Source: Squalus acanthias
Taxonomy: Eukaryota
Length of the DNA: 64,000 bases
Direction: 5' to 3'
Assembly (NCBI GenBank): GCA_030390025.1
Contig: JASTWF010000328.1
Coordinates: forward strand, 124,001 to 188,000
In this document: piece after piece, positions 11,560 through 64,000 of the stretch
Layout of the letters: every line of letters starts with the position of its first letter
How positions within the stretch are numbered: the stretch's first letter is position 1
Notes under the pieces: model-generated
Told to the model about the DNA's origin: nothing
The model's database searches: none
Seen by the model: the letters and a program-made list of their open reading frames with translations, nothing else
Position numbers and translations under genes: made by a program

Positions 11560-12693
11560 TTAGATTCTATGATCAGTGTGAAGACGCTGGTGTCTCTTAA
11601 GGTTCTTCGAGCTTTTAAAGCTCTTCCCACAGTCAGAACATTTAAAGGGTCTCTCCCCAGTGTGAACTCGCTGGTGTTCAGTGAGGTTGGATGACTGAGT
11701 GAATCCCTTCCCACACACAGAGCAGGTGAACGGTCTCTCCCCAGTGTGTAGGTGTTGGTGTCCCTTCAGATCCCGGGAGCTTTTAAAGATTCTCCCACAG
11801 TCAGAACATTTAAAGGGGTTCTCTCCAGTGTGAACTCGCTGATGTGCCAGCAGGTTGGAGGACCGAGCGAATCCCTTCCCACACTCGGAGCAGGTGAACA
11901 GTCTCTCCCCAGTGTGTAGGTGTTGGTGTCTCCTCAGCTCCCCGGAGCTTTTAAATCTCTTCCCACATTCAGAACATTTAAAGGGTCTCTCATCAGTGTG
12001 AACTCGCTGGTGTGTCTGCAGGGTGGAATACTGAGTGAATGCCTTCCCACATTCGGAGCAGATGAATATCCTCTCCCCAGTGTGGAGGCGCTGGTGTCTC
12101 TGCAGGTTGGATGACTGAGTGAATCCCTTCCCACACACGGAGCAGGTGAATGGCCTCTCCGCAGTGTGTAGGTGTTGGTGTCCCTTCAGATCCCCGGAAC
12201 TTTTAAAGCTCTTCCCACAGTCAGAACATGTAAATGGCCTCTCATCAGTGTGAGCACGCTGGTGTTGCTTCAGATCCCCGGAGCTTTTAAAGCTCTTCCC
12301 ACAGTCAGAACATATAAACGGTCGCTCATCGGTGTGAACAAGCTGGTGTCGCTTCAGATTCTGGGGGATTTTAAAGCTCTTCTCACAGTCAGAACACTGA
12401 AATGGTCTCTCGTCAGTGTGAACTCACTGGTGTGTTTGCAGGTGGGATGAACAAACAAATCCCTTTCCACACACGGAGCAGGTGAACGGACTGTCCCTGG
12501 TGTGACTGCGCCGTTGAACTTCTATTGCAGACGGGGAACTGAATCCCTTCCCACCGTCCCCACCTTTACCCGGTTTCTCCCCGGTGTGACGGTGCACGTG
12601 TCTCGCCAGGTCAGGCGATCGGCTGAATCCGCGTCCACACACCGAACACGTGTGCGGTTTGTCATCGCTGCGATCGCTGCTTTCTCCTTCCAT
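11560..12693 (-). pseudogene. C2H2 ZNF locus B (class II, about 13 finger units) with one in-frame TGA and a 3' end replaced by a CR1 tail
   Basis: ATG at 12693 (MEGESSDRSDDKPHTCSVC); TGA at 12424-12426 in HQ*VH; same frame then open to 11560; acceptor at 12803-12804. Confidence 0.8.
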
Positions 12694-12899
12694 GTGCAAA
12701 GGCCGATGATATTCAGGTCCTGATGAATCGAGCGACTCTGTCAGATCTTGACGTGATGTTTGGTCTGAGCTTCCCGCCTGTAACTGCTCCACTTCTATAA
12801 CCCTGTAAATCAAGTTCAGAAAAGGATCAGAGGCAAACTGTTGTTTAATTTTCCCCTTTCCGAACCTAGGGGCAGTGAAGCTGATTTTCAGGCTCCAGC

Positions 12900-16740: not shown

Positions 16741-16876
16741 GTGGGTTCTCTCTCACGCTCCCTGTTTTAAATTCATTTTACAGGGTATTAGAAGGGGAGG
16801 ATTTGCAGACGGTAAGCTCAAAGCACACATCAAATCACTCGATTCATCGGAACCTGAGTATCACCGGCCTCTGAAC

Positions 16877-17914
16877 ATGGAAGCAAAAAGCACCGTTCAG
16901 AGCGGGGAGAAACCGTACACGTGTTGTGTGTGTGGACGAGGCTTCAGCCGATCCTCTGGCCTATCGACACACAAGCGCAGTCACACCGGGGAGAGGCCGT
17001 TCATCTGCTCTGAGTGTGGGAAGGGATTCACTAATTCATCCATCCTACTGAGACACCAGCAAGTTCACACTGGGGAGAGGCCGTTCACCTGCTCCATGTG
17101 TGGGAATGGATTCACTCGTTCATCCCACCTACTGAGACACCAGCGAGTTCACACTGGGGAGAGGCCGTTCACCTGCTCTGTGTGTGGGAAGGGATTCACT
17201 CAGCCATCCAACCTGCTGACACACCAACGCATTCACACTGATGAGAGACCTTTTAAATGCCCGGACTGTGGGAAGTGCTATAAAAGTTCCGGGGAACTGA
17301 CATACCATCAACATGTTCACACTGGGGAGAGACCGTTCAGGTGCTCTCACTGCGGGACTGGGTTCAGGCGATCATCTGAACTCACTGTACACCAGCGCAC
17401 TCACACTGGAGAGAGGCCATTCACCTGCTCCGTGTGTTGGAAGGGATTCACTCAGTTATCCACCCTGCTGAAGCACGAGCGAGTTCACACTGGGGAGAGG
17501 CCGTTCACCTGCTCTGAATGTGGAAAGGGTTTCACGCAGTCATCAGACCTTCTAACACACCAGCGAGTTCACACCGGGGTGAGGCCATTCACCTGCTCTG
17601 AGTGTGGGAAGGGATTCACTCGTTCATCCCACCTGCTGACACATCAGTTAGTTCACACTGGGGAGAGGCCGTTCACCTGCTCCGTGTGTGGGAAGGGATT
17701 TACTCAGTCATCCACCCTGCTGACACACCAGCGAGTTCACACTGGGGAGAGGCCGTTCACCTGCTCTGAGTGTGGGAAGGGATTCACTCAGTCATTCACC
17801 CTGCTGACACACCAGCGAGTTCACACTGGGGAGAGGCCGTTCACCTGCTCTGAGTGTGGGAAGGGATTCACTCGTTCATCCCACCTGCTGACACATCAGC
17901 GAGTTCACAAGTGA
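16877..17914 (+). CDS. C2H2 zinc-finger protein, 345 aa, 12 tandem fingers, no KRAB (locus C, class II)
   Basis: AACATGG start, uninterrupted ORF, 12 C-x2-C-x12-H-x3-H units with TGERP linkers; acceptor at 16782-16783; AATAAA at 18060. Confidence 0.92.
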
Positions 17915-21345: not shown

Positions 21346-21681
21346 CTTATGAACTCGCTGAGGTTTCAGCAGGTTGCATGATAGACTGAATCCCTTCTCA
21401 CACACGGAGCAGGTGAACGGCCTCTCCCCAGTGTGAACTCGCCAGTGCAGAATGAGGTTGGATGACTGCTTGAATCTCTTCCCACAGTGAGTGCAGCTGA
21501 ATGGTCTCTCATCAGTGTGAACTCGCTGATGTGTTTGGAGAATGGACGAGCGAGTGAATCCCTTCCTACAGACGGAGCAAGTGAATGGCCTTTCCCCGGT
21601 ATGACTGCGTTGATGAATTTCCAGTTGGGACGGGTAATTGAATCGCTTCCCACAGTCCCCACATTTCCACGGTTTCTCCAT
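21343..21681 (-). CDS. C2H2 zinc-finger protein (locus D, class I), four finger units from ATG (MEKPWKC...)
   Basis: ACCATGG at 21681; frame open upstream to the invariant TGA at 21877-21879; last finger has H>P; the family acceptor is absent. Confidence 0.65.
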   Translation of the reverse strand: MEKPWKCGDCGKRFNYPSQLEIHQRSHTGERPFTCSVCRKGFTRSSILQTHQRVHTDERPFSCTHCGKRFKQSSNLILHWRVHTGERPFTCSVCEKGFSLSCNLLKPQRVHK

Positions 21682-21959
21682 GGTGCGGGTGTCCTTGTGT
21701 CTCTCCAGGTTGGACGATCGGTTGAAGCCTCGTCCACACACAGAACACGTGTACGGTTTCTCCCCGCTGTGGATGGTGCGATGTTTTTTCAGGCTGTGCA
21801 ACTGATTAAAGCTCTTTCCACAGTCAGTGCACTGGAACACTCTCACTCGGGTGTGTGTGTCTCGGTGCTTTTCCAGTCACACTGATGTTTGAAATCTTTT
21901 CCCACAGACAGAACAGACAAACAATTCTCAGCTCACCTTCTGTTGTTCAGCTTTAAAGG

Positions 21960-22610
21960 TCAAGCCCCGCCCCTCACCCACTCCGATTGGTTGGAGGACC
22001 CGCCGCCCGCTCGGTCCTCCAGCCCCGCCCCGCTCTTCCTATTGGTCCGAGCTCCCGTCAATCACCCGGGCAGTGTGAGCAATCATGCGCGGACCTTGGC
22101 AGCAGCCGCTGACACATCAGGTGAGAGAGCTCAGGGAGCGGGTTAATAAACCCGGGGGGGGGCGCGGGCTGCACACATCCCGAGTGCGCGAACGCTTGAA
22201 TGATCGGACGAACAATTTGAGTGGATGGTCGGGTGGGCGGTGCCAGTGGGACTGGCGTGGAACAGGTTTCTTGGGTTATTGGAGTGGATGTTATCTGTGG
22301 CATTTAGTTGGATTGTGATGGTGCTATGTGTTTGTACACTGTGGTGTTGAAATGGGTTGTTTTATGTGGAGTTAAGTGAGATGTATTATTTTAAATCTAA
22401 AAAAAAAAAATTGTGTGGTATTGTTTGGGGTATTTGTACTGTATTTACTGTGATGGATGAATGTAATTGGTTTGAATAAAAGATTCATTCCGAGTGCGGC
22501 CCCAGGCCCCATTATTAAAACACTCAACATTATCCGCCCGTCGCTTCCCGGTTTCTCCCGATTCGCTCAGCAAAGGGGCACCGCGCCAAACTCCGGGACA
22601 GACAGGAAGT
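21960..22610. promoter_or_regulatory. CpG-island promoter between divergent loci D and E, interrupted by an insertion
   Basis: Reverse CCAAT/GC cassette at 21960-22070; CpG-rich 22490-22610. Confidence 0.55.
22189..22485 (+). mobile_element. 5'-truncated retro-insertion (same family as 7720-8152)
   Basis: Ends GAATAAAAGATT; 13-bp TSD CAT(C/T)CCGAGTGCG at 22176-22188 and 22486-22498. Confidence 0.75.
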
Positions 22611-23074: not shown

Positions 23075-23860
23075 TTAGAGCCAGAATCAGCACCTTCTGG
23101 GAAGGAAAACGAGGAGAAACAGTGAGTGTAGAACTGAACCCAGCCAGAGTCAGCACCTTCAGGGGAGGAGAGGGAGGGGAACCAGTGAGTGTAGAACTGA
23201 ACCCAGCCAGTGTCAGCACCTTCAGGGGAGGAGAGGGAGGGGAACCAGTGAGTGTAGAACTGAACCCAGCCAGAGTCAGCATCTTCAGGGGAGGAGAGAG
23301 AGGGGAACCAGTGAGTGTAGAACTGAACCCAGCCAGAGTCAGCACCTTCAGGGGAGGAGAGGGAGGAACCAGTGAGTGTAGAACTGAACCCAGCCAGAGT
23401 CAACACCTTCAGGGGGGGGAGAGAGAGGAACCAGTGAGTGTAGAACTGAACCCAGCCAGAGTCAGCACCTTCTGGGAAGGAGAACAAGGGGAACCAGTGA
23501 GTGTAGAACTGAACCCAGCCAGAGTCAGCACCTTCAGGGGAGGAGAGGGAGGGGAACCAGTGAGTGTAGAACTGAACCCAGCCAGAGTCAGCACCTTCAG
23601 GGGAGGAGAGGGAGGGGAAGCAGTGAGTGTAGAACTGAACCCAGCCAGAGTCAGCACCTTCAGGGGAGGAGAGGGAGGGGAACCAGTGAGTGTAGAACTG
23701 AACCCAGCCAGAGTCAGCACCTTCAGGGGAGGAGAGGGAGGGGAACCGGTGAGTGTAAACTGAACCCAGCCAGAGTCAGCACCTTCAGGGGAGGAGAGGG
23801 AGGGGAACCGGTGAGTGTAGAACTGAACCCAGCCAGAGTCGGCACCTTCAGAAGAGGGGG
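23075..23860 (+). repeat. 63-bp minisatellite (about 12 copies) upstream of the locus E exon
   Basis: Unit AGTGAGTGTAGAACTGAACCCAGCCAGAGTCAGCACCTTCAGGGGAGGAGAGGGAGGGGAACC. Confidence 0.95.
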
Positions 23861-24062: not shown

Positions 24063-25106
24063 GGTATTAGAAGGGGAGGATTTACAGACGGGAAACTCAA
24101 ACCAAACATCACGTCAAGATCTGACAGAGTCACTCCATTCATCAGGACCTGAATATCATCGGCCTTTGAATGTGGAAGGAGAAATGTTTGTCTGTTCTGT
24201 CTGTGGGGAAAGATTTCAAACAATAGTGTGACTGGAAAAGCACCGAGACACACACACCCGAGTGAGAGTGTTCCAGTGCACTGACTGTGGAAAGAGCTTT
24301 AACCAGTTACACAGCCTGAAAAAACATCGCACCATTCACAGCGGGGAGAAACCGTACACGTGTTCTGTGTGTGGACGAGGCTTCAACTGATCGTCCAACC
24401 TGGAGAGACACAAGGACACCCGCACCACGGAGAAATCGTGGAAATGTGGGGACTGTGGGAAGGGATTCAATTCCCCATCGAGCTGGAAATTCATCAACGC
24501 AGTCACACCGGGGAGAGGCCGTTCACCTGCTCCGTGTGTGGGAAAGGATTCAGTCTATTGTGCAACATGCTCAGACACCAAGGTGTTCACACTGTTGCCA
24601 CACAGTTTAATAGCTCCGTGTGTGGAAATGAATTCAGTCAATCGCCTAACCTGCTGAAACACCAGCGAGTTCACACTGACGAGAGTCTGTTTAAATGTTC
24701 TGACTGTGGGAACTGCTTTAAAAGCTCTGAGGAACTGATTAAACACCAGGGTGTTAACACTGGGGAGAGGCCGTTCACCTGCTCCGTGTGTGGGAAGGGA
24801 TTCACTCAGTCATCCAGCCTCACTGCACACCAAATTATTCACTCTAATAAGAGACCGTTTAAATGTTCTGACTGTGAGAAGAGCTTTAAATCAACAAAGG
24901 ATCTGATGCAACACCAACGCACTCACACCGGGGAGAGGCCGTTCACCTGCTCCGTGTGTGGGAAGGGATTCACTCAGTCATCCCACCTCACTGCACATCA
25001 ACTTGTTCACACTGGTAAGAGACCATTTAAATGTTCTGAGTGTGAGCAGAGCTTTAAAAGCACAGCTGATCTCCTGAGACACCAGCGAGGTCACACCCAG
25101 GACTGA
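24063..25106 (+). pseudogene. C2H2 ZNF locus E (class I) with a frameshift
   Basis: TGA at 24229 and 24388, ACG at 24427, 1-nt deletion near 24475-24480; seven further finger units (one degenerate) ending HTQD*. Confidence 0.78.
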
Positions 25107-28410: not shown

Positions 28411-28855
28411 TCACTTGTGAACTCGCTGGTGTGTAAACAGGTTGGATGAACCATTGAATCCCTTCCCACACACGGAGCAGGTGAACGGCTTCTCCCCAGT
28501 GTGACTGCGTCGATGAATTTCCAGCTCAGACGGGTAATTGAATCCCTTCCCACAGTCCCCACATTTCCACGGTTTCTCCGTGGTGCTGGTGTCCTTGTGA
28601 CTCTCCAGGTTGGACGATCGGTTGAAGCCTCGTCCACACACAGAACACGTGTACAGTTTCTCCCCGCTGTGAATGGTGCGATGATTTTTCAGGCTGTGTA
28701 ACTGGTTAAAGCTCTTTCCACAGTCAGTGCACTGGAACACTCTCACTCGGGTATGTGTGTCTCGATGCTTTTCCAGTCACACTGATGTTTGAAATATTTT
28801 TCCATTCAGAACAGACAAACATTGCTCCTTCCACATTCAGAGGCTGATGATACTC
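28411..28855 (-). pseudogene. Short C2H2 ZNF locus F (class I), 5'-truncated, two fingers after the ACG
   Basis: TGA at 28777-28779, CGA at site 2, ACG at 28581; ends HQRVHK*; acceptor region missing. Confidence 0.72.
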
Positions 28856-29567: not shown

Positions 29568-30278
29568 TCACTTGTGAACTCGCTGGTGTCTCAGCAGGTG
29601 GGATGAACGAGCGAATCCCTTCCCACACACGGAGCAGGTGAACGGCCTCTCCCCAGTGTGAACTCGCTGGTGTATCAGCAGCGTGGATGACTGAGTGAAT
29701 CCCTTCCCACACACGGAGCAGGTGAACGGCCTCTCCCCAGTGTGAACTCGCTGGTGTGTCAGCAGGTTGGATGATTTAGTGAATCCCTTCCCACACACTG
29801 AGCAGGTGAATGGCTTCTCTCCAGTGTGAAATCGCTGGTGTGCCAGCAGGTTGGATGATTTAGCGAAACCCTTCCCACACATGGAGCAGGTGAACGGCCT
29901 TTCCCCAGTGTGAGTGTGTTGGTGTACAATGAGATTGGATGACTGCCTGAACCTCTTCCCACAGTGAGAGCAACTGAATGGTTTATCGTCAGTGTGAACT
30001 CGCTGGTGTTGAATCAGTTCCTCAGAGCTTTTAAAGCAGTGTACACAGTCGGAGCATTTAAAAGGTCTCTCGTCAGTGTGAACTCGCTGGTGTCTCAGCA
30101 GGTGGGATGAATTAGTGAATCCCTTCCCACACACTGAGCAGGTGAACGGCCTCTCCCCGGTGTGCCGGTAGCGATGAGTTTTCAGCTCAGACGGGCAATT
30201 GAATCCCTTCCCACAGTCCCCACATTTCCACGGTTTCTCTGTGGTACGGGTGTCCTTGTGACTCTCCAGGTTGGACGA
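29568..30278 (-). CDS. C2H2 ZNF locus G (class I), eight intact fingers, start unresolved (exon extends to 30604)
   Basis: Frame open from TGA 30279-30281 to 29568; TGA also at 30438-30440; ACA at the Kozak-site codon. Confidence 0.65.
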
Positions 30279-30879: not shown

Positions 30880-31250
30880 CAATGATTGTCTCTCCTGGTC
30901 ACTGGGACCCTGAAGCCCCGCCCACTCTGTGTTCCTGCAGAAGTTAGCCGCGCATGCGCAGTAACCAGGCCCTGTCCAAGATGGCGGCCAGTGACCCCGC
31001 TGACCCGGGCGGCCGGGCCTGTCACCGCGGGGCAAACACTCGGCCTGTGGGCTTTTATTCGAGGCCTGAGGCCTACACCAGGGGTTTATGATGTTTCCCA
31101 GCCCACCCGCGGGTCCAATTGCTCCCCGAGCCCACAATCTCCTACCGCCTCCCGGAACCTTCTCTTCCGCTTCAGAACAGCGGCACCACTGGTACTGCGC
31201 ATGCTCAGCACTGCCGGTCCCGCGCCTGCGCAGTAGGCTCCTGTGGTCAT
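30880..31250 (-). promoter_or_regulatory. CpG-island promoter of locus G
   Basis: GCCCCGCCC, CGCGCATGCGCA, CAAGATGGCGGCC, TGCGCATGCTCA. Confidence 0.65.
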
Positions 31251-35039: not shown

Positions 35040-35965
35040 AACTTCCCTTGCTCTTACTCTCTGATTTCTGTTTTGTAGCCATCTTTTCACCAAAACATGC
35101 TACTTGGCCCTTGACTCCACACGGCCTGACCTTTGACTCCACACAATCTGACCTTTGGTTATCTTGTAGATCGTATACACTGCAGACAAAGTGCACCAGT
35201 GGTGGAGGGGATCGATATTGAGTCCTGTGGCAAGTGTGCTGCTGAAGTGGACTTCTCTGTCCCGTGTGTTTTGATGGGTCGCTAGTGGCGTTTTTCACCT
35301 ATTTCCACCTTGGGAAAAAAAATTGCTGCCAGCTTCTCCGGTAAGACATACAAAAATATGGTGCCTCGTAAGTTTCCCTCTGAATAACAGGACTGCACTG
35401 AAGTTAGAAAACACAGTTAGTAAACATTTAGCAATTAAACCGGACTGGGCGGGGCCTGAGGTACGAGTTGGTAACTGAAAAGTGGCGGCCAGCGTACTTC
35501 ACACGATGGCAGAGGGACCGGGCATGTGGGTTTCTATATAATTAATTAATTAATTTTGTTGATTGCCTCTCCGGGCTCAATCTCGATGGAATAATTTTTT
35601 TAATGTTCTGTTCCCCAATTGGGGCTTTCAATGGCGGGGTGTTTACCCAGAATCCCCCGCGAGGCAGAATGTGCCCTATCAATGACCACAGGAGCCCAGT
35701 GCGCAGGCGCGGGACCGGGCAGTGCTCTGAGCATGCGCAGTGCGAGTGTTGGCGATGGTCTAAAGCAGAAGAGACGGTTCCGGGAGGCGGCAGGAGATTG
35801 TGGGCTCGGGGAGGAATTGGACCCGCGGGTGGGCTGGGAAACTTCATAAACACCCGGTGTAGGCCTCAGGCCCCGAATAAGAGCCCTCAGGCCCCGTGTT
35901 TGCCCCGCGGTGACAGGCCCGGCCGCCCGGGTCAGCGGGGTCACTGGCCGCCATCTTGGACAGGG
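35040..35965 (+). promoter_or_regulatory. Upstream block plus CpG-island promoter of locus H; inverted duplicate of about 30970-32070
   Basis: Reverse-complement homology; NRF1-like GAGCATGCGCA; GGCCGCCATCTTGG at about 35946. Confidence 0.7.
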
Positions 35966-36009
35966 CGGATGATTCTCTGAAAACTAACAGAACCAAAGAA
36001 AGAAATGAT

Positions 36010-36670
36010 CAGAAACAACAGCAAAATACTGCGGCTGCTGGAAATCTGAAATAACAACAGGAAATGCTGGAAACAGATTTTAAGCAGGTGCAGAGGCTGG
36101 GAAAGGGGAGGAAGGAACAGTCTGTGCTCGGGTAGGAGGCAGGAGGGATAAAATGTTGCAAATGGGGATGGCAAAACCATAAACAGCCTGAAAAATGGGG
36201 GCAGGGGTTATAGTCTGAAATTGTTGAACTCAATGTTGAGTCCTGAAGGCTGTAAAGTGCCTAATCGAAAGATGAGGTGCTGTTCCTCGAGCTTACGTTG
36301 AGCTTCATTGGAACAGTGTAAGAGGCCGAGGACAGAGAGATCAGAGTGGGAGTGAAGCGGAGAATTAAAGTGACAGGCGACCAGAAGCTCGGGGTCACCC
36401 TTATGGACTGAATGGAGGAGTTCCGCAAAGCGGTCGCCCAATCTGCATTTAGTCTCCCCAATGTAGAGGAGACCGCGTCGTGAGCAGCGAATACAGTATA
36501 CTAAATTGCAAGAAGTACAAGTAAATCGCTGTTTCACCTGGAAGGGTGTTTGGGGCCCTGGACAGTGGGAAGGGAGGATGTAAAAGGGCATGTGTAGCAT
36601 CCCCTGCACTTGCACGGGAAGGTGCTGGGCGAAGGGGAAGGGCTGTTGGGGGTGATTGAGGAGTGGACCA
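36010..36670 (-). mobile_element. Penelope-like element GIY-YIG fragment plus pLTR remnant
   Basis: FTCTSCNLVYCIRCSRRGLLYIGETKCRLGDRFAE...LGTLQPSGLNIEF. Confidence 0.9.
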
Positions 36671-37408
36671 TCACATAGTCCATCTCTGACTCTTCCCTTC
36701 CCTTCCTTGACTTCTCTGTCTCCATTTCTGGTAATAGACTATCGACAAACATCCACTACAAGCCCACTGACTCCCACAGCTACCTGGACTACACTTCCTC
36801 CCACCCCGCTTCCTGTAAGGACTCTATTCCATTCTCCCAGTTTCTCCATCTCCACCGCATCTGTTATGATGATGCCACCTTCCATACCAGTGCTTCCGAC
36901 ATGTCTTCCTTTTTCCTCAACCGAGGATTCCCCTCTACTGTGGTTGACTCAGCCCTTGACCGTGTCCATTCCATTTCCCGCACTTCTGCTCTCATCCCTT
37001 CCCCTCCCTCTCAGAACCACGATAGGGTTCCCCTTGTCCTCACCTTTCACCCCACCAGCCTCCACATTCAACGGATCATCCTCCGCCATTTCCGCCACCT
37101 CCAGCGTGATCCCACCACCAAACACATCTTCCTCTCCACCCCCTTTCAGCATTCCGCAGGGACCGTTCCCTCTGCGACACCCTGGTCCACTCCTCAATCA
37201 CACCCAACAGCCCTTCCCCCGGCACCTTCCCGTGCAAGTGCAGGAGATGCAACACCTGCCCTTTTACCTCCTCCCTTCCCACTGTCCAGGGCCCCAAACA
37301 CCCTTCCAGGTGAAACAGCAATTTACTTGTACTTCTTGCAATTTAGAACACTGTATTCGCTGCTCACGATGCGGTCTCCTCCACATTGGGGAGACCAAAC
37401 GCAGATTC
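36670..37408 (+). mobile_element. Penelope-like element RT thumb/linker and GIY-YIG start, inverted relative to its neighbour
   Basis: DMSSFFLNRGFP, DRVPLVLTFHP, CIRCSRCGLLHIGETKR. Confidence 0.88.
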
Positions 37409-37619
37409 CTTCACAACTGTAACAATTTTATTGCGGTTGCTGTGAAGGCTGCGCTCACTCTGCTCGTACACCTGGTCTCCAAAGGAGGCAAAACAGGACT
37501 AATGCTGCCGAGCTCAGCTCTTTTTGATCAGAAAATATCAACTGTTTCGCCTCACCAGGAAATGCACAGAAGAGGCAGCAGTGCTCATTGGCTGCCCAGG
37601 AAAGTCCTATTTAGATTAA

Positions 37620-37865
37620 ACTCCTTCACCCAGAGAATGCTGAGAATGTGGAACTTGCTGCCACAGTGAGTAGTTGAGGCGAAGAGCAGGGATGCATTTA
37701 AGGGGAAGCTGGATAAACACATGGGAGAAAGGAATAGAAGGAGATGCTGATAGGGTGAGATGAAGAGAGATGGGAGGAGGCTCGTGTGGAGCATAAACAC
37801 CGCATGGACCAGTTGGGCCGATTGGCCTGTTTCTGTGCTGTACAATCTATGTAATTCTATGTAAT
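37620..37865 (+). mobile_element. CR1 3' end
   Basis: FTQRMLRMWNLLP; GGGCCGATTGGCCTGTTTCTGTGCTGTA tail. Confidence 0.8.
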
Positions 37866-38237
37866 AAGAGAGGAAAGAATGTTCCATAGAAACTGGAATT
37901 ATCTGTTCTGAATTTTAATCCTCAACTTACAGTGATGTCTTTTGTAAACTGCTTTTACAGGGAATATCATAGGCCTTTGAATGTGGAAGGAGAAATGTTT
38001 GCCTGTTCTGTCTGTGGGAAAAGGTTTCAAACGTCACTGTGACTGGAAAAGCACCGAGACACACACACCCGAGTGAGAGTGTCCCAGTGCACTGACTGTG
38101 GAAAGAGCTTTAACCAGTTACACAGCCTGAAAAAACATCGCACCGTTCACAGCGGGGAGAAACCGTACACGTGTTCTGTGTGTGGACGAGGCTTCAACTG
38201 ATCGTCCAACCTGGAGAGCCACAAGGACACCCGCACC

Positions 38238-38996
38238 ACGGAGAAACCTTGGAAATGTGGGGACTGTGGGAAGGGATACAATTACCCCTCCCGGCTGGAA
38301 ATTCATCGACGCAGTCACATTGGGGAGAGGCCGTTCATCTGCCCCGTGTGTGGGAAGGGATTCACTTGGGCATCCGTCCTCCGAACACACCAGCGAGTTC
38401 ACAGTGATGAGAGACCGTTCAGTTGCTCTCAGTGTGGGAAGAAGTTCAGGCAGTCAGCCACCCTCATTGGGCACAAACGTATTCACACTGGAGAGAGACC
38501 GTTCACCTGCACGGTATGTGGGAAGGGATTCATTTCTTTTTCCCACCTCACTCTTCACAAGCGAGCTCACACTGGAGAGAGACCGTTCATCTGCTCTGTG
38601 TGTGGGAAAGGATTCAGTTCCTCATCCAACCATTTGAGACACCAGACTGATCACACTGAGGAGAGGCCGTTCACCTGCACAGTGTGTGGGAAGGGATTCA
38701 CCCGTTCATCCCACCTTCTGACTCATCAGCGCACTCACACTGGGGAGAGGCCATTTTCCTGCTCGGTATGTGGAAAGCGATACATTTGTTCATCCCACCT
38801 CACTACACACCAACTTGCTCACTCTGATAAGAGACCTTTTAAATGTTCTGATTGTGAGAAGAGCTTTAAAAGCACAAATGAGCTGGCGAAACACCAGCGA
38901 GTTCACACTGGGGAGCTGCCGTTCGCCTGCTCCATGTGTGGGAAGCGATTCACTCGTTCATCCCATCTGCTGGCACACCAGCGAGTTCACAAGTGA
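38238..38996 (+). CDS. C2H2 zinc-finger protein (locus H, class I), nine intact fingers from a candidate ACG start (exon from 37961)
   Basis: Open 38202-38996 with all Cys/His ligands intact; TGAs at 38040 and 38199; the only in-frame ATG is in the last finger. Confidence 0.75.
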   Translation, partial: TEKPWKCGDCGKGYNYPSRLEIHRRSHIGERPFICPVCGKGFTWASVLRTHQRVHSDERPFSCSQCGKKFRQSATLIGHKRIHTGERPFTCTVCGKGFISFSHLTLHKRAHTGERPFICSVCGKGFSSSSNHLRHQTDHTEERPFTCTVCGKGFTRSSHLLTHQRTHTGERPFSCSVCGKRYICSSHLTTHQLAHSDKRPFKCSDCEKSFKSTNELAKHQRVHTGELPFACSMCGKRFTRSSHLLAHQRVHK

Positions 38997-39054
38997 CTGC
39001 AGGGGTTGGATTCTGCTGTTAATCTCATCCAACAGCTTGCATTTACATAGCACC

Positions 39055-39470
39055 TTTTACTCTGCTGCCTGTATCCTAACTCTCACCGAGTCCCGTTCAC
39101 CCATCTCCCCTGTGCTCGCTGACCTACATTGGCTCCCGGTTGAGTAACGCCTCGATTTTAAAATTCTCATGCTTGTTTTCAAATCCCTCCACGGTCCCTC
39201 GCCCCTCCCTATCTCTAACCTCCTCCAGCCCAACAACCCTCCGAGATCTCTGGCCTCCTCCAATTCTGGCCTCTTGAGCATCGTCCATTTTAATCGCTCC
39301 ACCATAGGCAGCCGTGCCTTCAGCTGCCTCGGCCCTAAGCTCTGGAATTCCCTCCCTAAACCTCTTCGCCTCTCTTTCCTCCTTAAAGACGCTCTTTAAA
39401 ACCTACCTCTTTAACCAAGCTTTTGATCACCTGCCTTAACCTCTCCCTGCCTGGCTCGGTGTCGAGCTTT
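39055..39470 (+). mobile_element. L2-type LINE 3' fragment in the 3' UTR of locus H
   Basis: ISPVLADLHWLPV...GSRAFSCLGPKLWNSLP. Confidence 0.85.
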
Positions 39471-39659
39471 CGTGAAGTGTTTCGGGCACTTTATTAAAGA
39501 CACATACAGCAGAAGCACATTAATCTGATGGGAGATCACTGACACACCAAGCCACGAATAGAGATATTAGGACAGGTGACCAAAAGCTTGGTCAAAGAGA
39601 GAGGTTTAAAAGAGCGTCTTAAAGTATAAGGGAGAGGTAGCGAGGCGGAGAGATCTGGG

Positions 39660-40860
39660 GAACATCAGAACTAGGAGCACTCACTTAGTGCCCCAAAATC
39701 TATCGATCTCAGCCTTGAATATACTCAATGACTGAGCCTCCACAGCCCTCTGGGGTAGAGAATTCCACAGATTCACCACCCTCTGAGTGAAGAAATTTCT
39801 CCTCATCTCAGTCCCAAATGGCCGCCCCCTTATCCTGAGAATATGCCCCCTGGTTCTAGACTCCCCAGCCAGGGGAAACATCCTCCAACATCTACCCTGT
39901 CAAGCCCTGTGAGAGTTTTGTATGTTTCAATGAGGTCACCTCTCATTCTTCTAAACTCTGGAGAATATAGGCCTAGTCTACTCAATCTGTCCTCATAGGA
40001 CAGCCCTCTCATCCCAGGAATCAATCTCGTGAACCTTCGTTACACCCCAGCTAAGGCCTTAGGTACGGAGACCAAAACTGTGCACAATACTCCAGGTGTG
40101 GTCTCACCAAAGCCCAAAATAATTGCAGCAAGACTTCCTCACTCTTATACTCCAACCCTGCCACCCCATTAGCGGAGGCATAGAATATAAGAGCAGGGAG
40201 GTTATGATGGAGCTGTACACAACGTTAGTTAGGCCACAGCTAGAATACTGTGTGCAGTTCTGGTCGCCACACTATAGGAAGGATGTGATTGCATTGGAGA
40301 GCGTGCAGAGGAGATTCACCAGGATGTTACCTGGGCTGGAGCGCTTCAGCTATGAAGAGAGACTGGACAGGGGTTGTTTTCCTTAGAGCAGAGAAGGCTG
40401 AGGGGGGACCTGATTGAGGTGTAAAAAACTATGAGGGGCATAGATAGGGCAGATAGAAAGGAACTTTTCCCCTTAGTCGAGGGGTCAATAACCAGGGGGC
40501 ATAGTTTCAAGGTAAGGGGCAGGAGGTTTAGAGGGGATTTGAGGAAAAACTTTTTCACCCAGAGGGTGATTGGAATGTGGAACTCACTGCCTGAAAGGGT
40601 GGTAGAGGCAGGAACCCTCACAACATTCAAGAAGCATTTAGATGAGCACTTGAAATGCCATAGCATACAAGGCTACGGACCAAGTGCTGGAAAATGGGAT
40701 TAGAATAGACAGGGCTTGATGGCCGGTGCGGACACGATGGGCCGAAGGGCCTCTTTCTGTGCTGGATAACTCGATGACTCTATGACCCCATTGCAATAAA
40801 GGCTAACATACCGTTTGCCTTCCTAATTGCTTGCTGCACCTGCATGTTAACTTTCTTGCT
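39660..40860 (-). mobile_element. CR1 fragment with a nested opposite-strand CR1 (40171-40784)
   Basis: CR1 C-terminal ORFs on both strands; ACCCCATT duplicated at 40163-40170 and 40785-40792. Confidence 0.85.
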
Positions 40861-40923
40861 GTACCTGCATGTTAACGTTCTTGCTGTACCTGCATGTTAA
40901 CTTTCTTGCTGTACCTGCATGTT
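40831..40923. repeat. 25-bp tandem repeat, about 4 copies, CR1-derived
   Basis: TTGCTGTACCTGCATGTTAACTTTC. Confidence 0.85.
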
Positions 40924-41296
40924 CTGGGAGGGAAATCCAGAGCTTGGGGCCTTGGCAGCTGAAGGCACAGCCGCCAATGGTGGGGCGATAAAAATCAGGG
41001 ATGTGAAAGAGGGCAGAATTGGGGGCTACATAGATAGGGACTGAATCTCTTCATTCTGGCAGTTGGGGGTTTGTTTCTGATGTCAATAATCCCCTCTTTC
41101 ACCTTTGATGTGTGAATAGACCATCACGCCTGCAAACCTCGTTTTACATATAAATCCATTCAGCAAATTTATTGTTCAAATGATGAACAAGTAATCAGAT
41201 CATGGCCCAATCCTCCAGCTCTATATTGACAGGAGAAAGTCTGTTCTATAACTCGAGGACAAGCTCTGAATGGTGGTAATCACAAGTAGACTTTTA

Positions 41297-42319: not shown

Positions 42320-42960
42320 TCATTAATGGCCGCGGCCTCTTGTGTTTCTGTCCATTTGATTCATTCCCGCTCCGCCTCCATCTCACTGCGATCAGTGAAA
42401 TCTCCAATTAATGACCTTCAATGGCAGAGATTATTGCCCAGCATGCGCAGGCGCAGGAGAATCCGACCTGTCACAGGAGCCCAGCGCGCATGCGCGGGGG
42501 AATCCGCCCAGTCACTGGAGCCCAGTGCGCAGGCGCGGGGGGAATCCGTCCAGTCACAGGAGCCCAGTGCGCAGGCGCGGAAGAAATCGCCCTGTTACAG
42601 GAGCCCTGTGCGCAGGCGCGGGACAGGCTCTGCGCGGTCGCCGGGCGGAGCTGCTGGTCGGTGGGAGCGGACTCAGGAGATTAATAAACTGCGGGTAGGC
42701 CGCGCCGCAGGGTTTATAAAGCTGGAGAACGGCCTCAGGCCCGAGTAAGATCCCGAGGCCCGGTCTGTGTTCCGCCGGACGGCAGCGGTGAGGCTTTTTC
42801 TCGGTGACAGGCCCGGGTTGATTTGGGGGGAGGGGAGAGAGATACCGGTCGCCATCTTGGTAGGGGAAGGAGGGACAACACGGTTTCCTGTGTATCACGG
42901 CGCATGCGCGGCCATCTTGGTACAGGACCAGAGTGGGCGGGGCTTCAGGGTCCCAGTGAC
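42320..42960 (+). promoter_or_regulatory. CpG-island promoter of locus I with tandem NRF1-like modules
   Basis: Four to five copies of (TGCGCAGGCGC/GCGCATGCGC) at 42440-42620; GCCATCTTGG twice; GGGCGGGGC. Confidence 0.7.
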
Positions 42961-43104: not shown

Positions 43105-44267
43105 TGAAAAACGCCCTCGTAAGAACGGGATATGACGCTCGACTCATCGATCGACAGTTCCGACGGGCCACAGCGAAAAATCGCATAGACCTCCTCAGAA
43201 GACAAACACGGGACACAACCAACAGGGTACCCTACGTCGTCCAGTACTTCCCCGGAGCGGAGAAACTACGCCATGTTCTTCGCAGCCTTCAACATGTCAT
43301 CGATGACGACAAACACCTCGCTAAGGCCATCCCCACGCCTCCACTACTTGCCTTCAAACAGCCGCCTAACCTCAGAAGTACCATCGTTCGCAGCAAATTA
43401 CCCAGCTTTCAGGATAACAGCGACCACGACACCACACAACCCTGCCATGGCAAACTCTGCAAGACATGCCAGATCATCAACACAGATACCACCATCACAC
43501 GTGAGGACACTACCCACCAGGTACATGGTACATACTCATGTGACTCGGCCAACGTTGTCTACCTCATACGTTGCAGGAAAGAATGCACCGCGGCATGGTA
43601 CATCGGCGAGACCATGCAGACACTGAGACAACGTATGAACGAGCACCGCGCAACAATCGCCAGGCAGGATTGTTACCTCCCAGTCGGGGAACACTTCAGC
43701 AGTCAAGGACATTCAGCCTCGGATCTGCGGGTAAGCGTTCTCCAAGGCAACCTTAGAAACACACGACAACGCAAAATCATCGAGCAGAAACTGATAGCCA
43801 AGTTCCGCACTCATGAAGACGGTCTCAATTGGGATCTTGGGTTTATGTCACGATACATGACGTGATCCGGACTCGAGTCGTCGTTAGCTTGTTCACAGAT
43901 GTGATTCCCAGTAAAAAAGTAAAAAAATGTTAAAGCTTTTCGTTTTACATACAGACGGCAGCTTTTGACACGTTAGAACCCCTGCGACTACACCTCATTG
44001 TCTCAGTTGTATCTTGCTATGTCTTTGATGTGGTACCTTCCTGGCTGACTTAATTAACTTTATCACACCTCGGCAGATAGTCAGGATGATTTAATTTATT
44101 GGTCTGCAATTGTAAAGTACACATGCTTTGTTTTCCATCTATATATGCTTTGGAGATTCTGTATCTAATTTACTTCACCTGAGGAAGGAGCAAATCGATA
44201 GCTCCGAAAGCTTGTGATTTCAAATAAAACTGTTGGACTATAACCTGGTGTTGTGCGACCTCTCAAT
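43105..44267 (+). mobile_element. Penelope-like element (second family), 5'-truncated, intronic, 10-bp TSD
   Basis: NRVPYVVQYFPG, NVVYLIRC...WYIGET, HFSSQGH...EQKLIAKF.THEDGLN; TSD TTTGGATTTC at 43095-43104 and 44268-44277. Confidence 0.9.
44175..44217 (+). ncRNA. Minimal hammerhead ribozyme motif
   Basis: TCAC-CTGAGGA-AGGAGC(AAATCGATA)GCTCC-GAAA-GCTT-GTGA; stem I TCAC/GTGA, stem II GGAGC/GCTCC. Confidence 0.8.
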
Positions 44268-44426
44268 TTTGGATTTCAGCACAGGGAGGAGGGAGAGAGT
44301 GTGGGACGGGGATTTACAGCTTTGGGGAAACAAGAGAGGAAAGATTGTTCCATAGAAACTAGAATTGTCTGTTCTGAATTTCTATCCTGTACTTACAGTG
44401 ATGACTTTTGTAAACTCCTTTTACAG

Positions 44427-45459
44427 GGTATTAGAAGAGGAAGATTTAGAGACAGGAAACTCAAACCAAACATCACAACAAGATCTGACAGAGTCACTCG
44501 ATTCATCAGGACTTGAATATCGACTTTTGAATCTGGAAGGAGAAATGTTTGTCTGTTGTGTCTGTGGGGAAAGATTTCAAACATAAGTGTGACTGGAAAA
44601 GCACCGAGACAGACACACCCGAGTGAGAGTGTTCCAGAGAACTGACTGTGGAAAGAGCTTTAACCTGTTACACAGCCTGAAAAAACATCGCACCTTTCAC
44701 AGCGGGGAGAAACCGTACACGTGTTCTGTGTGTGGACGAGGCTTCAACTGATCGTCCAACCTGGAGAGTCACAATGACACCCGCACCACGGAGAAACCCT
44801 GGAAATGTGGGGACTGTGGGAAGGGATTCAATTACCCGTCGCTACTTGAAACTCATCGATGCACTCACACCGGGGAGAGGCCATTCACCTGCTCCGTGTG
44901 TGGGAAGGGATTTGCTCAGTCATCCCAACTGCCGACACACCAGCGGGTTCACACTGGGGAGAGGCCATTCACCTGTTCTATGTGTGGAAAGAGATTTACT
45001 TCCTCATCCCAGCTCATCAAACACCAGCGAGTTCACACTGGGGAGAGGCCGTTTACCTGCTCCGTCTGTGGGCAGGGATTCACTCAATCATCCCATCTGT
45101 TGACACATCAGCGAGTGCACACCAGGGAGAGGCCGTTCACCTGTTCCTTGTGTGGGAAGGGATTCACTCATTCATCTACCCTGCTGACACACCAGCATGC
45201 TCACACTGGAGAGAGGCCGTTCACCTGCTCCGTGTGTGGGAAGGGATTCAATTCTTCATCGCACCTTCTGACACACCGGCGAGTTCACACTGGGGAGAGG
45301 CCGTTTATCTGCACCATGTGTGAAAAAGGATTCAATCGTTAATCCGATTTGCTGAGACACCAGCGTGTGCACATTTAGGAGAGGCCATTCACCTGCTCCA
45401 TTTGTGGGAAGGGATTCTCTCAGTCATCCCACCTGCTGACAAACCAGCAAGCTCACAAG
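44427..45459 (+). pseudogene. C2H2 ZNF locus I (class I) with extra stops and a CR1 inserted at its stop codon
   Basis: TAA 44584, TGA 44590, TGA 44749, ACG 44788, six intact fingers, then TAA 45340 and TAG 45376. Confidence 0.78.
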
Positions 45460-54131: not shown

Positions 54132-54970
54132 AAAGGTGCTGACTCTGGATGGGTTCAGTTCTACACTCACTGGTTCCTCTCCCTCTCCTCCCCTGAAGGT
54201 GCTGACTCTGGCTGGGTTCAGTTCTACACTCACTGGTTCCCCTCCCTCTCCTCCCCTGAAGGTGCTGACTCTGGCTGGGTTCAGTTCACTCACTGGTTCC
54301 CCTCCCTCTCCTCCCCTGAAGGTGCTGACTCTGGCTGGGTTCAGTTCACTCACTGGTTCCCCTCCCTCTCCTCCCCTGAAGGTGCTGACTCTGGCTGGGT
54401 TCAGTTCTACACTCACTGGTTCCCCTCCCTCTCCTCTACTGAAGGTGCTGACTCTGGCTGGGTTCAGTTCTACACTCACTGATTCCCCTCCCTCTCCTCC
54501 CCTGAAGGTGCTGACTCTGGCTGGGTTCAGTTCTACACTCACTGGTTCCCCTCCCTCTCCTCCCCTGAAGGTGCGGACTCTGGCTGGGTTCAGTTCACTC
54601 ACTGGTTCCCCTCCCTCTCCTCCCCTGAAGGTGCTGACTCTGGCTGGGTTCAGTTCTACACTCACTGGTTCCCCTCCCTCTCCTCCCCTGAAGGTGCTGA
54701 CTCTGGCTGGGTTCAGTTCACTCACTGGTTCCCCTCCCTCTCCTCCCCTGAAGGTGCTGACTCTGGCTGGGTTCAGTTCACTCACTGGTTCCCCTCCCTC
54801 TCCTCTCCTGAAGGTGCTGACTCTGGCTGGGTTCAGTTCACTCACTGGTTCCCCTCCCTCTCCTCCCCTGAAGGTGCTGACTCTGGCTGGGTTCAGTTCT
54901 ACACTCACTGGCTCCCCTCCCTCTCCTCCCCTGAAGATGCTGACTCTGGCTGGGTTCAGTTCACTCACTG
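54132..54970 (-). repeat. 63/60-bp minisatellite, about 13 copies, same family as 23075-23860
   Basis: Mix of 63-bp units and 60-bp units with a 3-nt deletion. Confidence 0.95.
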
Positions 54971-55009
54971 GGATCCTGAAGCCCCGCCCACTCGTGGTTC
55001 CTTTTTTCC

Positions 55010-55554: not shown

Positions 55555-55895
55555 TCTCTATCCACACTCAGCTGGTGAACAGCCTCTCCCCGGTGTGACT
55601 GTATCCATGAGTTTGCACCTCAGACGGGCAACTGAACCCGTTCCCACATTCCCCACATTTACACTGTTGATTCAGGTGGGTGCACGAGTCTCACAGACAA
55701 GACGATTTGTTAAAAGTGGATCCAGGCACAGAACACGTGTCCTGTTTCTCCCCGCTGTGATTGGTGCTTTTTCCTCCTATAGCCAAAGACCGATGATATT
55801 CAGGTCCTGATAAACCGGGTGAATCTGTCAGATCTTGACGCAATGTTTGGAGTGTGTTTCCAACTGCAGATCCTCCCCTTCTAATACCCTCAACT
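55555..55895 (-). pseudogene. Heavily degenerate class II ZNF exon (locus J)
   Basis: GGTATTAGAAGGGGAGGATCTGCAG leader, [22 protein letters not shown]...HTGER. Confidence 0.72.
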
Positions 55896-56109
55896 GGTGT
55901 TTACAACAGGTTAGAACTTCAGAACAGACAAATCTAGTTTCTTTACAACATCCTTTTCCCTCATGTCCCTCCTAAGCTGTAAATTCCCCATTCTACACAC
56001 TCTCCCTCCATCCTTACTGTCTAAAAACAACATTCATTACATCATCTGGGATTTTGTGTCTCCCCTTCTCTCCAGAAGGAACTGAATCTGGCTGGGTGCA
56101 TTTGGTTAA

Positions 56110-62249: not shown

Positions 62250-62925
62250 TCACTTGTGAACTCGTTGAAGTCTCAGCAGGTTGGATGACTGAGTGAATCC
62301 CTTCCCACACTCAGGAGCAGGTGAACGGTCTCTTCCCAGTGTGAACTCGCTGGTGTCTCAGCAGGGTGGATGATCGAGTGAATCCCTTCCCACACTCAGA
62401 CCAGGTGAACGGCCTCTCCCCGGTGTGAACTCGCTGGTGTGTCAGCAGGTGGGATGACTCAGTAAATCCCTTCCCACACACAGAGCAGGTGAACGATCTC
62501 TCCCCAGTGTGAACTCGCTGGTGTATCAGCAGGCTGGATGATGAAGGGAATCCCTTCCCACACAAGGAGCAGGTGAACGGTCTCTCCCCGGTGTGAACTC
62601 GCTGGTGTTTCAGCAGCCTGGACGATGAAGGGAATTCCTTCCCACACAGGGAGCAGGTGAACTCCCTCTCCCCAGTGTGAACTCGCTGGTGTATCAGCAA
62701 GTCAGATGATCGAGTGAATCCCTTCCCACACTGAGAGCAGGTGAATGGCCTCTCCCCAGTGTGAACTTGCTGGTGTATCAGCAGGTCGGATGACTGAGTG
62801 AATCCCTTCCCACACATGGAGCAGGTGAACGGCCTCTCCCCAGTGTGAGTGGGATGATGAATTTCCAGCTCAGATGAGTAATTGAATCCCTTCCCACAGT
62901 CCCCACATTTCCCCGGATTCTCCGT
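62250..62925 (-). CDS. C2H2 ZNF locus K (class I), about eight finger units from a candidate ACG; 1-nt insertion in the last finger (exon extends to 63287)
   Basis: TGAs at 63121-63123 and 62962-62964; ACG at 62925; open to 62311 where a frameshift creates TGA; ancestral stop at 62250-62252. Confidence 0.62.
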
Positions 62926-63489: not shown

Positions 63490-63978
63490 GATCAGTTCTA
63501 CACTCACTGGTTCTCCTCCCCCGAAGGTGCTGACTCTGGCTGGGTTCAGTTCACTCACTGGTTCCCCTCCCTCTCCTCCCCTGAAGGTGCTGACTCTGGC
63601 TGGGTTCAGTTCACTCACTGGTTCCCCTCCCTCTCCTCCCCTGAAGGTGCTGACTCTGGCTGGGTGCAGTTCACTCACTGGTTCCCCTCCCTCTCCTCCC
63701 CTGAAGGTGCTGACTCTGGCTGGGTTCAGTTCTACACTCACTGTTCCCCTCCCTCTCCTCCCCTGATGGTGCTGACACTGGCTGGGTTCAGTTCTACACT
63801 CACTGGTTCCCCTCCCTCTCCTCCCCTGAAGGTGCTGACACTGGCTGGGTTCAGTTCTACACTCACTGGTTCCTCTCCCTCTCCTCCCCTGAAGGTGCTG
63901 ATTCTGGCTGGGTTCAGTTCTACACTCACTGGTTCCCCTCCCTCTGCTCCCCTGAAGGTGCTGACTCTGGCTGGGTCA
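63490..63978 (-). repeat. 63/60-bp minisatellite, about 8 copies, upstream of locus K
   Basis: Same unit as 23075-23860 and 54132-54970. Confidence 0.95.
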
Positions 63979-64000
63979 CTACCACACTTAAGGGGACCCT

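Follow-up and report, generated by a model that had tools for sequence, protein, structure and literature searches.

Can a zinc-finger array be translated when no AUG stands in front of it, and if so from which codon? This is the question raised by a locus of Squalus acanthias, here called H, whose nine-finger C2H2 array occupies positions 38238-38996 (+) of the window (the whole stretch of 64,000 nucleotides that was analysed). The array comprises 252 codons and a TGA; as had been noted, its helices include TWASVL, QSATL and ISFSHL and it contains no in-frame ATG until 38934, its codon 233. The codon at its head, which is the candidate start, is an ACG (38238-38240, +) at the Gly position of a former TGEKP linker. 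The original prediction took this codon, lying in a strong Kozak context, for a start used across the family, and proposed that ACG, ATG and ACA alleles act as low, high and off expression settings. Our preferred reading, to which we would give a probability of about 45%, is that translation would begin weakly at the near-cognate ACG, possibly with help from an in-frame CUG at 38211.

The codon before the array, in the window and in the genome

A six-frame scan together with a search for the junction identified eight copies of one zinc-finger gene type in the window, and the codon preceding EKPWKC is ACG in six of them, ATG in one and ACA in one, all as originally listed. Besides H, ACG is found in A (367-369, +), whose array runs to its natural end; in E (24427-24429, +), where finger 1 is frameshifted; in F (28579-28581, -), which has only two fingers and a CGA at the second stop position; and in I (44788-44790, +) and K (62923-62925, -), the frames of which end early, after six fingers each. 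Among these six, the natural array end is reached by A, F and H. ATG stands in D (21679-21681, -), which retains three fingers and a degenerate last finger, and ACA in G (30240-30242, -), with eight intact fingers. The reported A at -3 and G at +4 are present in all eight copies, although the wider context differs in G, which has CGTACC rather than GCACC; similarly, the EKPWKC motif holds at most loci, but E reads EKSWKC and K reads ENPGKC. The window also contains a decayed remnant of the family at 55583-56009 (-).

The ACG majority extends beyond the window. Exact 27-nt patterns searched across the 3.7-Gb assembly, with no match to the reversed-pattern control, gave 1,823 matches, of which 1,252 have ACG, 502 ATG (27.5%), 54 ACA and 15 another codon; each count is a minimum for the family, and uncollapsed haplotypes may be among the matches. 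The ACG at this junction is a real, family-wide feature and apparently one that is so far undescribed, as a literature search that covered few subscription journals and no supplements found no paper on the family or its start codon.

Lineage-specific tandem poly-C2H2 families are represented by the KRAB-ZNFs of tetrapods and the FiNZ-ZNFs of cyprinids, described by Wells et al. 2023 (PMC10547256), in the main text of which the strings shark, chondrichth, start codon and pseudogen do not occur. As far as the available text of that source describes them, those families share with the present one their hundreds to thousands of clustered paralogues, conserved framework, variable helices and many broken copies. 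The family here has TGEKP-linked fingers and many clustered paralogues, a large share of them broken, and a conserved framework with free or diversifying helices, as judged from the dN/dS contrast (0.26-0.42 at framework positions vs 0.53-0.92 at variable, i.e. helix, positions). It differs from them in that H lacks the N-terminal effector domain, in that 5' fingers became UTR, and in that most copies have no AUG at the array start. The 20 Pfam matches of H are to zinc-finger-type families only, including PF00096 and PF13465, and KRAB, SCAN and BTB are absent among them. The family is thus of the tandem C2H2 type, evolving by birth, death and conversion, without an effector domain.

The leader of H and its relatives

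Upstream of H, a GC-rich block at 35690-35828 (+), homologous to a block upstream of G, would contain the promoter and the first exon, with predicted exon borders. It carries a motif at 35701 that we take to be NRF1-like, a donor-like CCGCGG/GT after 35828, and two ATGs, one at 35733, within what is presumably a second NRF1-like motif, and one at 35755 (ATG GTC TAA). The last exon begins after an acceptor (CTTTTACAG, 37945-37960, +) that is common to most family copies, and H lacks 84 nt directly after it. What follows is a leader of 277 nt (37961-38237, +) made of three degenerate zinc fingers, in which two uAUGs precede the site: that of uORF1 (37981-38076, +; 31 codons, out of frame, weak context) and that of uORF2 (37995-38042, +; 15 codons, in the array frame), which ends at a first TGA (TGA#1, 38040-38042). 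A second (TGA#2, 38199-38201, +) is the upstream limit of the open frame of the array, leaving at most 12 open codons before the ACG. Within these lies an in-frame CTG (AAC CTG G, 38211-38213, +), 27 nt upstream of the ACG and a second candidate near-cognate start. TGA#1 is kept in 65 of the 66 copies that cover its position, and the TGA#2 position has TGA in 58 of 73 copies, CGA in a minority of 10 and other codons in 5.

The leader evolves as a non-coding 5' UTR, since its changes show no bias by codon position (0.026/0.022/0.023), its dN/dS is 0.78-0.80, and frameshifts are many (1.3-3.1 per kb); on the codon-position and dN/dS tests we rejected the possibility that it is translated by read-through. 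Because these dead upstream fingers behave as a non-coding leader, the frame of the array opens only after TGA#2, and the near-cognate codon stands in frame with no usable in-frame AUG upstream. No Rfam family matched within 35500-41000, and a metagenome scan also gave no matches.

Several paralogues in the window deserve description in their own right. In D, a CCAAT/GC-box promoter adjoins the leader (21930-22280, -), and the intron, the acceptor and both uAUG positions are lost. The promoter of I (42436-42622, +) has five repeats of ~41 nt, each with GCGCA(G/T)GCGC, which we assume to be an NRF1-like motif, and its intron holds an insertion of ~1.2 kb (43107-44270, +) flanked by repeated TTTGGATTTC, whose reading resembles, in our view, the end of a Penelope-type GIY-YIG endonuclease. 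One tandem repeat of ~60-63 nt forms three arrays (23079-23857, 54133-54971 and 63492-63988), two of which are intronic, in E and K, and closely precede the leader. About 25 nt past the acceptor, and still before TGA#1, the old main frame contains a second ACG/ATG polymorphism (the 24090 region in E), with ACG in E and ATG in A and K.

The window also includes sister genes. One, of a type beginning MEGKS (16784-17911, +; 12 fingers), is AUG-started: its ATG at 16877 is at the GTG position of the family, and since the exon part before this ATG is out of frame, the gene starts inside the last exon. The MEGKS type (16877, and Cetorhinus P0041) shares its last exon, acceptor and downstream fingers with the ACG family, but keeps AAC ATG G where the latter has AAT GTG G; neither the two extra dead fingers nor the two TGAs are present in it, and its linker before KPWKC is of the ordinary kind. 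At 11578-12824 (-) lies one more type of sister gene, whose frame is open from an acceptor of the same sort.

The closest named proteins to the family come from sharks. At the junction, Thr is found in Heptranchias (P0002) and Heterodontus (P0052, P0135, P0136, P0147 and P0161), Met in Pristiophorus (P0008), Chiloscyllium (P0121) and Heterodontus (P0123, P0131 and P0134), and Val in P0088 and P0122 (Heterodontus and Scyliorhinus); shark sequences among the protein matches are few, so that counts across species are anecdotal and subject to gene-model bias, and the models cannot separate ACG from ACA. The genera with Thr or Met junctions span both main shark lineages. The junction sequence of P0136 is identical to that found here, and P0134 gives the leader as LQLIIQ in another frame, which implies the same TGA#2 in Heterodontus; this, and the Thr in both Heptranchias and Heterodontus, indicates that the junction state is old. 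In P0161 and P0135 a Met stands at the Leu (CTG) position nine codons before the site, and this, like the Val at the site itself, would be compatible with start-capable codons. The public models P0002, P0052, P0088, P0123, P0135 and P0136, made for copies that lack ATG, are joined to unrelated exons or neighbour genes, probably as an annotation artefact.

Upkeep of the arrays and of the codon

A serious contender, although we would put it somewhat below an even chance, is that only ATG copies are usefully translated, whereas ACG copies are transcribed passengers that look well kept owing to their youth and to steady conversion of fingers and leader patches between copies, any of which a CpG deamination or a conversion event could turn on. 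One may ask whether the arrays behave accordingly. We examined 103 copies: the eight of the window, 40 ACG and 30 ATG copies taken by spacing among the first 100 listed per class, 23 ACA copies from 20 regions around the first entries among the list of 54, and two incidental ones; four copies cut at the end of the fetched sequence, each with at least 8 fingers, were scored as intact. Intact arrays number 56 of 103 overall, being 23/47 for ACG, 17/32 for ATG and 16/24 for ACA, with no pair significantly different (ACG vs ATG, Fisher p=0.82); ACA copies had been drawn at a higher density and their private branches are shorter, so part of their intactness reflects youth. Irrespective of the codon, about half of all copies are dead. 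Inside seven mixed subfamilies the codon class is likewise without effect: one hints at decay of ACA copies (2/7 intact vs 4/4), two others show the opposite, and the pooled p is 0.53. A model in which ATG marks an essential subset, with an assumed ~80% of ATG arrays intact, was rejected (17/32, p=6e-4). Faster decay of ACG copies, suggested by a count of damaged residues per finger (0.196 vs 0.068 for ATG and 0.079 for ACA), was also rejected, because that count used mis-registered windows and the corrected one shows no class difference.

Private changes tell a similar story, the framework dN/dS being 0.34 for ACG (87 N/63 S), 0.26 for ATG and 0.42 for ACA, the last no different from the ACG value, against 0.79 in the leader, and frameshifts are rarer in ACG arrays than in their own leaders (0.39 vs 1.57 per kb, p=2e-4). 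The expectation that ACG copies hold intact arrays as often as ATG copies was therefore borne out in this sample, and decay of ACG copies after the manner of pseudogenes, which would have told against an ACG start, was not seen. In close pairs the framework counts show a small trend towards ATG (4 N/8 S in three ATG-ATG pairs, below 25 N/31 S in five ACG-ACG pairs). The frame downstream of the ACG shows the signature of purifying selection, with conversion from AUG copies as a confounder: synonymous change is higher in the arrays than leader divergence, a pattern expected where translated genes donate finger tracts by conversion, so that finger conversion may contribute to the array signal in every class, and conversion, which scrambles alleles, could mimic selection. 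That the array signature is the same in all three classes is what inheritance or conversion predicts and counts in favour of silent ACG copies, whereas the failure of ATG copies to be more intact than ACG copies counts against them. Three ACA copies (L002:5010, L014:4983 and L015:4979) have an unrelated shared sequence in place of the leader upstream of ~-90; their arrays are nonetheless intact, with 8-12 fingers.

The subfamily of H itself provides suggestive evidence, and the best we have, for upkeep of an ACG-led array. The distinctive fingers 2-4 of H match 26 places among 40 scored candidates, which gives at least 26 genome copies, with ACG in 22, ATG in 4 and ACA in none. The full 252-codon frame is present in 21 of the 22 ACG and 3 of the 4 ATG copies, and in most copies the open frame after TGA#2 comprises 264 codons; other ACG copies are intact in 21/45 cases (p=1e-4). 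The remaining ACG copy aligns over just 472 of 759 nt. The only copy of this type found with an internal stop is an ATG copy, which also has a 29-nt insertion and 11 nonsynonymous to 1 synonymous private change. That the array expanded to at least 26 copies, most of them ACG and 21/22 of those intact, and that the lone copy with a stop carries ATG, both count against ACG copies being passengers. Twenty ACG copies lie 9-24 nt from H; their amino-acid/nucleotide ratio is 0.56, where neutrality would give 0.72-0.75, and it involves branches shared among copies and rounded identities. How surprising the scarcity of lesions is depends on the true tree length (p ~0.15-0.65 at 60 substitutions, at most 0.015 at 190), and the subfamily may be young or may include uncollapsed haplotypes.

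The original prediction had argued from the strong Kozak context, and this argument fails: a purine at -3 and G at +4 are found in 550 of 617 ordinary linkers of the sampled arrays, so the context is inherited from the TGEKP linker, comes free with it, and was rejected as evidence. The G at +4 is lost in 20 of 1,272 copies behind ACG and in 9 of 511 behind ATG (p=0.84). An ACG located 69 nt upstream served as control, and among its 1,211 matches the first 100 have 96 ACG, 1 ATG and 3 ACA; ACA at the start site (54/1,808, 3.0%) is thus at the control rate (3/100, p=1.0), whereas ATG, at 27.8%, is ~28-fold more frequent than at the control (1/100), which is itself possibly constrained, as each of its decay products makes a uAUG. 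The ACA-depletion and +4G tests could miss a two-fold effect, half of the copies being dead. The class-weighted derived shares of other leader CpGs lie between 0 and 0.15 except for two, at 0.57 and 0.82, so that the ATG share of 0.278 is the third highest, high and not unique, and the 9:1 ratio of ATG to ACA was rejected as proof of ACA purging, since it is ATG that is in excess and the skew at other leader CpGs is as strong. At ten other leader sites CpG is kept as CG in 79-96% of copies, and CpG retention is a property of the whole leader, not specific to the ACG.

Conservation of the start codon and its context beyond background was accordingly not found, ACA being at the control rate and +4G unprotected. 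Folding downstream of the ACG gave no hairpin beyond shuffles in five of five stretches (z +1.4, -0.3 and +0.8), the match to the NAT1 motif is partial (ACCCGCACC fits 3 of 6 GCCGCC positions), and G-to-T changes (1 at +4, 0 at -81) are too few to power a stop-codon test. The low/high/off settings are not supported, because such a dial needs purging or decay of ACA copies and neither is seen: ACA stands at 3.0% against 3/100 in the control, 16/24 ACA arrays are intact, and +4G loss is equal.

The same prediction held ATG and ACA to be deamination products of ACG. Recurrent CpG deamination at the site is plausible, but the scatter of ATG on a tree of 91 copies, where it needs 19 changes for 30 copies, was rejected as proof of it, since non-CpG sites are equally scattered, e.g. 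a leader transversion that needs 11 changes for 13 copies. With r2 between leader sites at 0.02-0.03 at all distances and such homoplasy at non-CpG sites, it is well supported that alleles are shuffled among copies, most simply by gene conversion.

Weighing these observations, the idea of silent ACG copies gains from the frequency of ATG at the site (27.8% vs 1/100 at the control) with ACA at background, from the lack of protection of the context, the +4G and the ACG itself, from the low r2 and heavy homoplasy in the leader, and from the two uAUGs upstream; it loses from an ATG share that is unexceptional beside the leader CpGs at 0.57 and 0.82. Initiation at the ACG is favoured because array intactness, framework dN/dS and H-type upkeep are similar to or better than those of ATG copies, and disfavoured because the context is free, ACA undepleted, +4G unprotected, two uAUGs precede the site and no hairpin follows it. 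Re-initiation at a near-cognate codon after uORFs is inefficient, which also counts against an ACG start. Between weak near-cognate initiation and a silent reservoir of ACG copies the odds are about even.

The history behind a possible weak initiation at the ACG begins with events that the sequences show. In an old shark subfamily of effector-less poly-C2H2 genes, the three leading fingers have died and now form 5' UTR in the last exon, and the Gly of the next TGEKP linker after TGA#2 has turned into ACG or ATG. The ACG, ATG and ACA alleles have been shuffled among at least ~1,800 copies by gene conversion, which is supported, and by CpG decay, which we infer. On our reading, ribosomes would scan past the two short uORFs, or re-initiate after them, and use a weak near-cognate start in the 39-nt window before finger 1, namely the ACG, perhaps aided by the CUG 27 nt upstream. 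A low output would suffice for purifying selection on the fingers of some copies, including the subfamily of H; ATG copies would be stronger-start variants, and a selected three-step dial would be unneeded.

Other starts, and what the family may mean

Initiation might instead occur mainly at the in-frame CUG (AAC CUG G) 27 nt upstream, adding an M-E-R-H-K-D-T-R-T extension. This would explain why all three classes are alike, since ACG and ACA would then be a silent Thr codon, and ACA arrays are indeed as intact as others. Between TGA#2 and the codon the sample has neither a frameshift nor a stop (no frameshift within 39 nt before the codon in 91 copies, where the rate further upstream is 2.2 per kb, and not one stop among 1,236 codons). 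This would fit a start at the ACG as well, but it is weak evidence, the stretch being less slippage-prone. The Met at the Leu position of two Heterodontus models (P0161 and P0135) points the same way, as does the rank of CUG as the commonest verified non-AUG start (10/17) in the available text of PMC3105428. However, in nine genome copies, among 33 variants at that base, a TAG directly follows the CUG; the purine at -3, CTG and G at +4 are kept in 92/103 copies, which is roughly the leader background; and AAC CTG G is ordinary coding for an S-N-L-E helix. A CUG start on its own is improbable.

A little less probable still is that an upstream AUG reaches the array by readthrough of the TGAs or by splicing past TGA#2. 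Runs from other organisms were aligned on G, three of them presumed to be RNA and one DNA-like. The RNA-like contigs span the leader as exon and depart from the G reference at the shared acceptor, across which the summed RNA-like depth changes from 15,000-38,000 to 190-1,330 while the DNA-like run continues; at the loose ends of 8 contigs in X5 and 7 in X9, non-intron letters stand before the exon start. In run X9 the cover increases across 31078-31175 of G, the counterpart of the promoter and exon-1 block of H. Since the RNA-like runs come from other organisms, the pattern hints at splicing at the shared acceptor and does not prove expression here. A lower share of ACA in the RNA-like runs (0.07%, 0.09% and 1.0%) than in the DNA-like one (3.7%) was dropped, because other minor alleles behave alike and the organisms differ. 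Splicing from an AUG-containing exon to a site past TGA#2 had been named in the original prediction as a result that would undo it; the shared acceptor is used in the joints seen, 15 of 85, a fraction that leaves some room for an acceptor further downstream, and no in-frame AUG crosses both TGAs. That the leader keeps its old frame in most copies, with a C after TGA#1, would suit an upstream AUG; the neutral dN/dS and many frameshifts of the leader, the contigs that span all of it, a putative exon 1 which, read by hand, has no AUG reaching the array frame, and the absence of a pyrimidine tract plus AG between TGA#2 and the codon all speak against one.

C-to-U editing of the ACG to AUG in the mRNA is very unlikely: one change would yield a codon that is genomic in 27.5% of copies, and editing of start codons is known from plant organelles, but a literature search found no vertebrate precedent and there is no structure around the site.

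Non-AUG starts have been described elsewhere, and both ACG and CUG are usable as mammalian starts (PMC3105428, PMC13754004). In the available text of these sources, WDR26 and DDX17 (PMC3105428), and CLK2 and sites with the NAT1 motif (PMC13754004), share with the present site a near-cognate codon with a purine at -3 and G at +4 and a selected frame; known cases are there mostly N-terminal extensions of single genes in which the AUG is retained and the start codon is conserved. In the shark family, by contrast, ACG would be the sole start in >1,000 paralogues and would interchange with ATG and ACA. Judged by sequence, the family cannot be classed among non-AUG genes, since only two of the defining features were found and two were not. 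In viruses, ACG starts are used by Sendai virus C' and AAV VP2, where a leaky ACG sets protein ratios from one mRNA, and in plant organelles ACG-to-AUG editing needs organellar PPR factors. These resemble the shark site in that ACG is used as a start or edited into one, for which the ACG here would be a candidate only.

The most far-reaching version of our reading, that >1,200 shark zinc-finger genes use ACG as their sole start across both main shark lineages, and that CpG decay and conversion flip copies between a weak ACG and a strong ATG as a heritable dosage switch, is doubtful. Were an ACG-only start true, its scale would be far larger than that of the single-gene cases in the available text of PMC3105428 and PMC13754004. 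According to the parts of PMC11620358 available, zebrafish mRNAs are sent to decay when ribosomes collide on tandem fingers, and one may speculate that a weak start could limit such collisions. Should the ACG copies prove to be translated, AUG-based annotation would miss about two thirds of this very large family of shark transcription factors, and the family would be a natural experiment on non-AUG initiation with >1,000 replicates. If they are silent, they would form an unusual reservoir, in which one CpG change could switch a ready-made DNA-binding array on.
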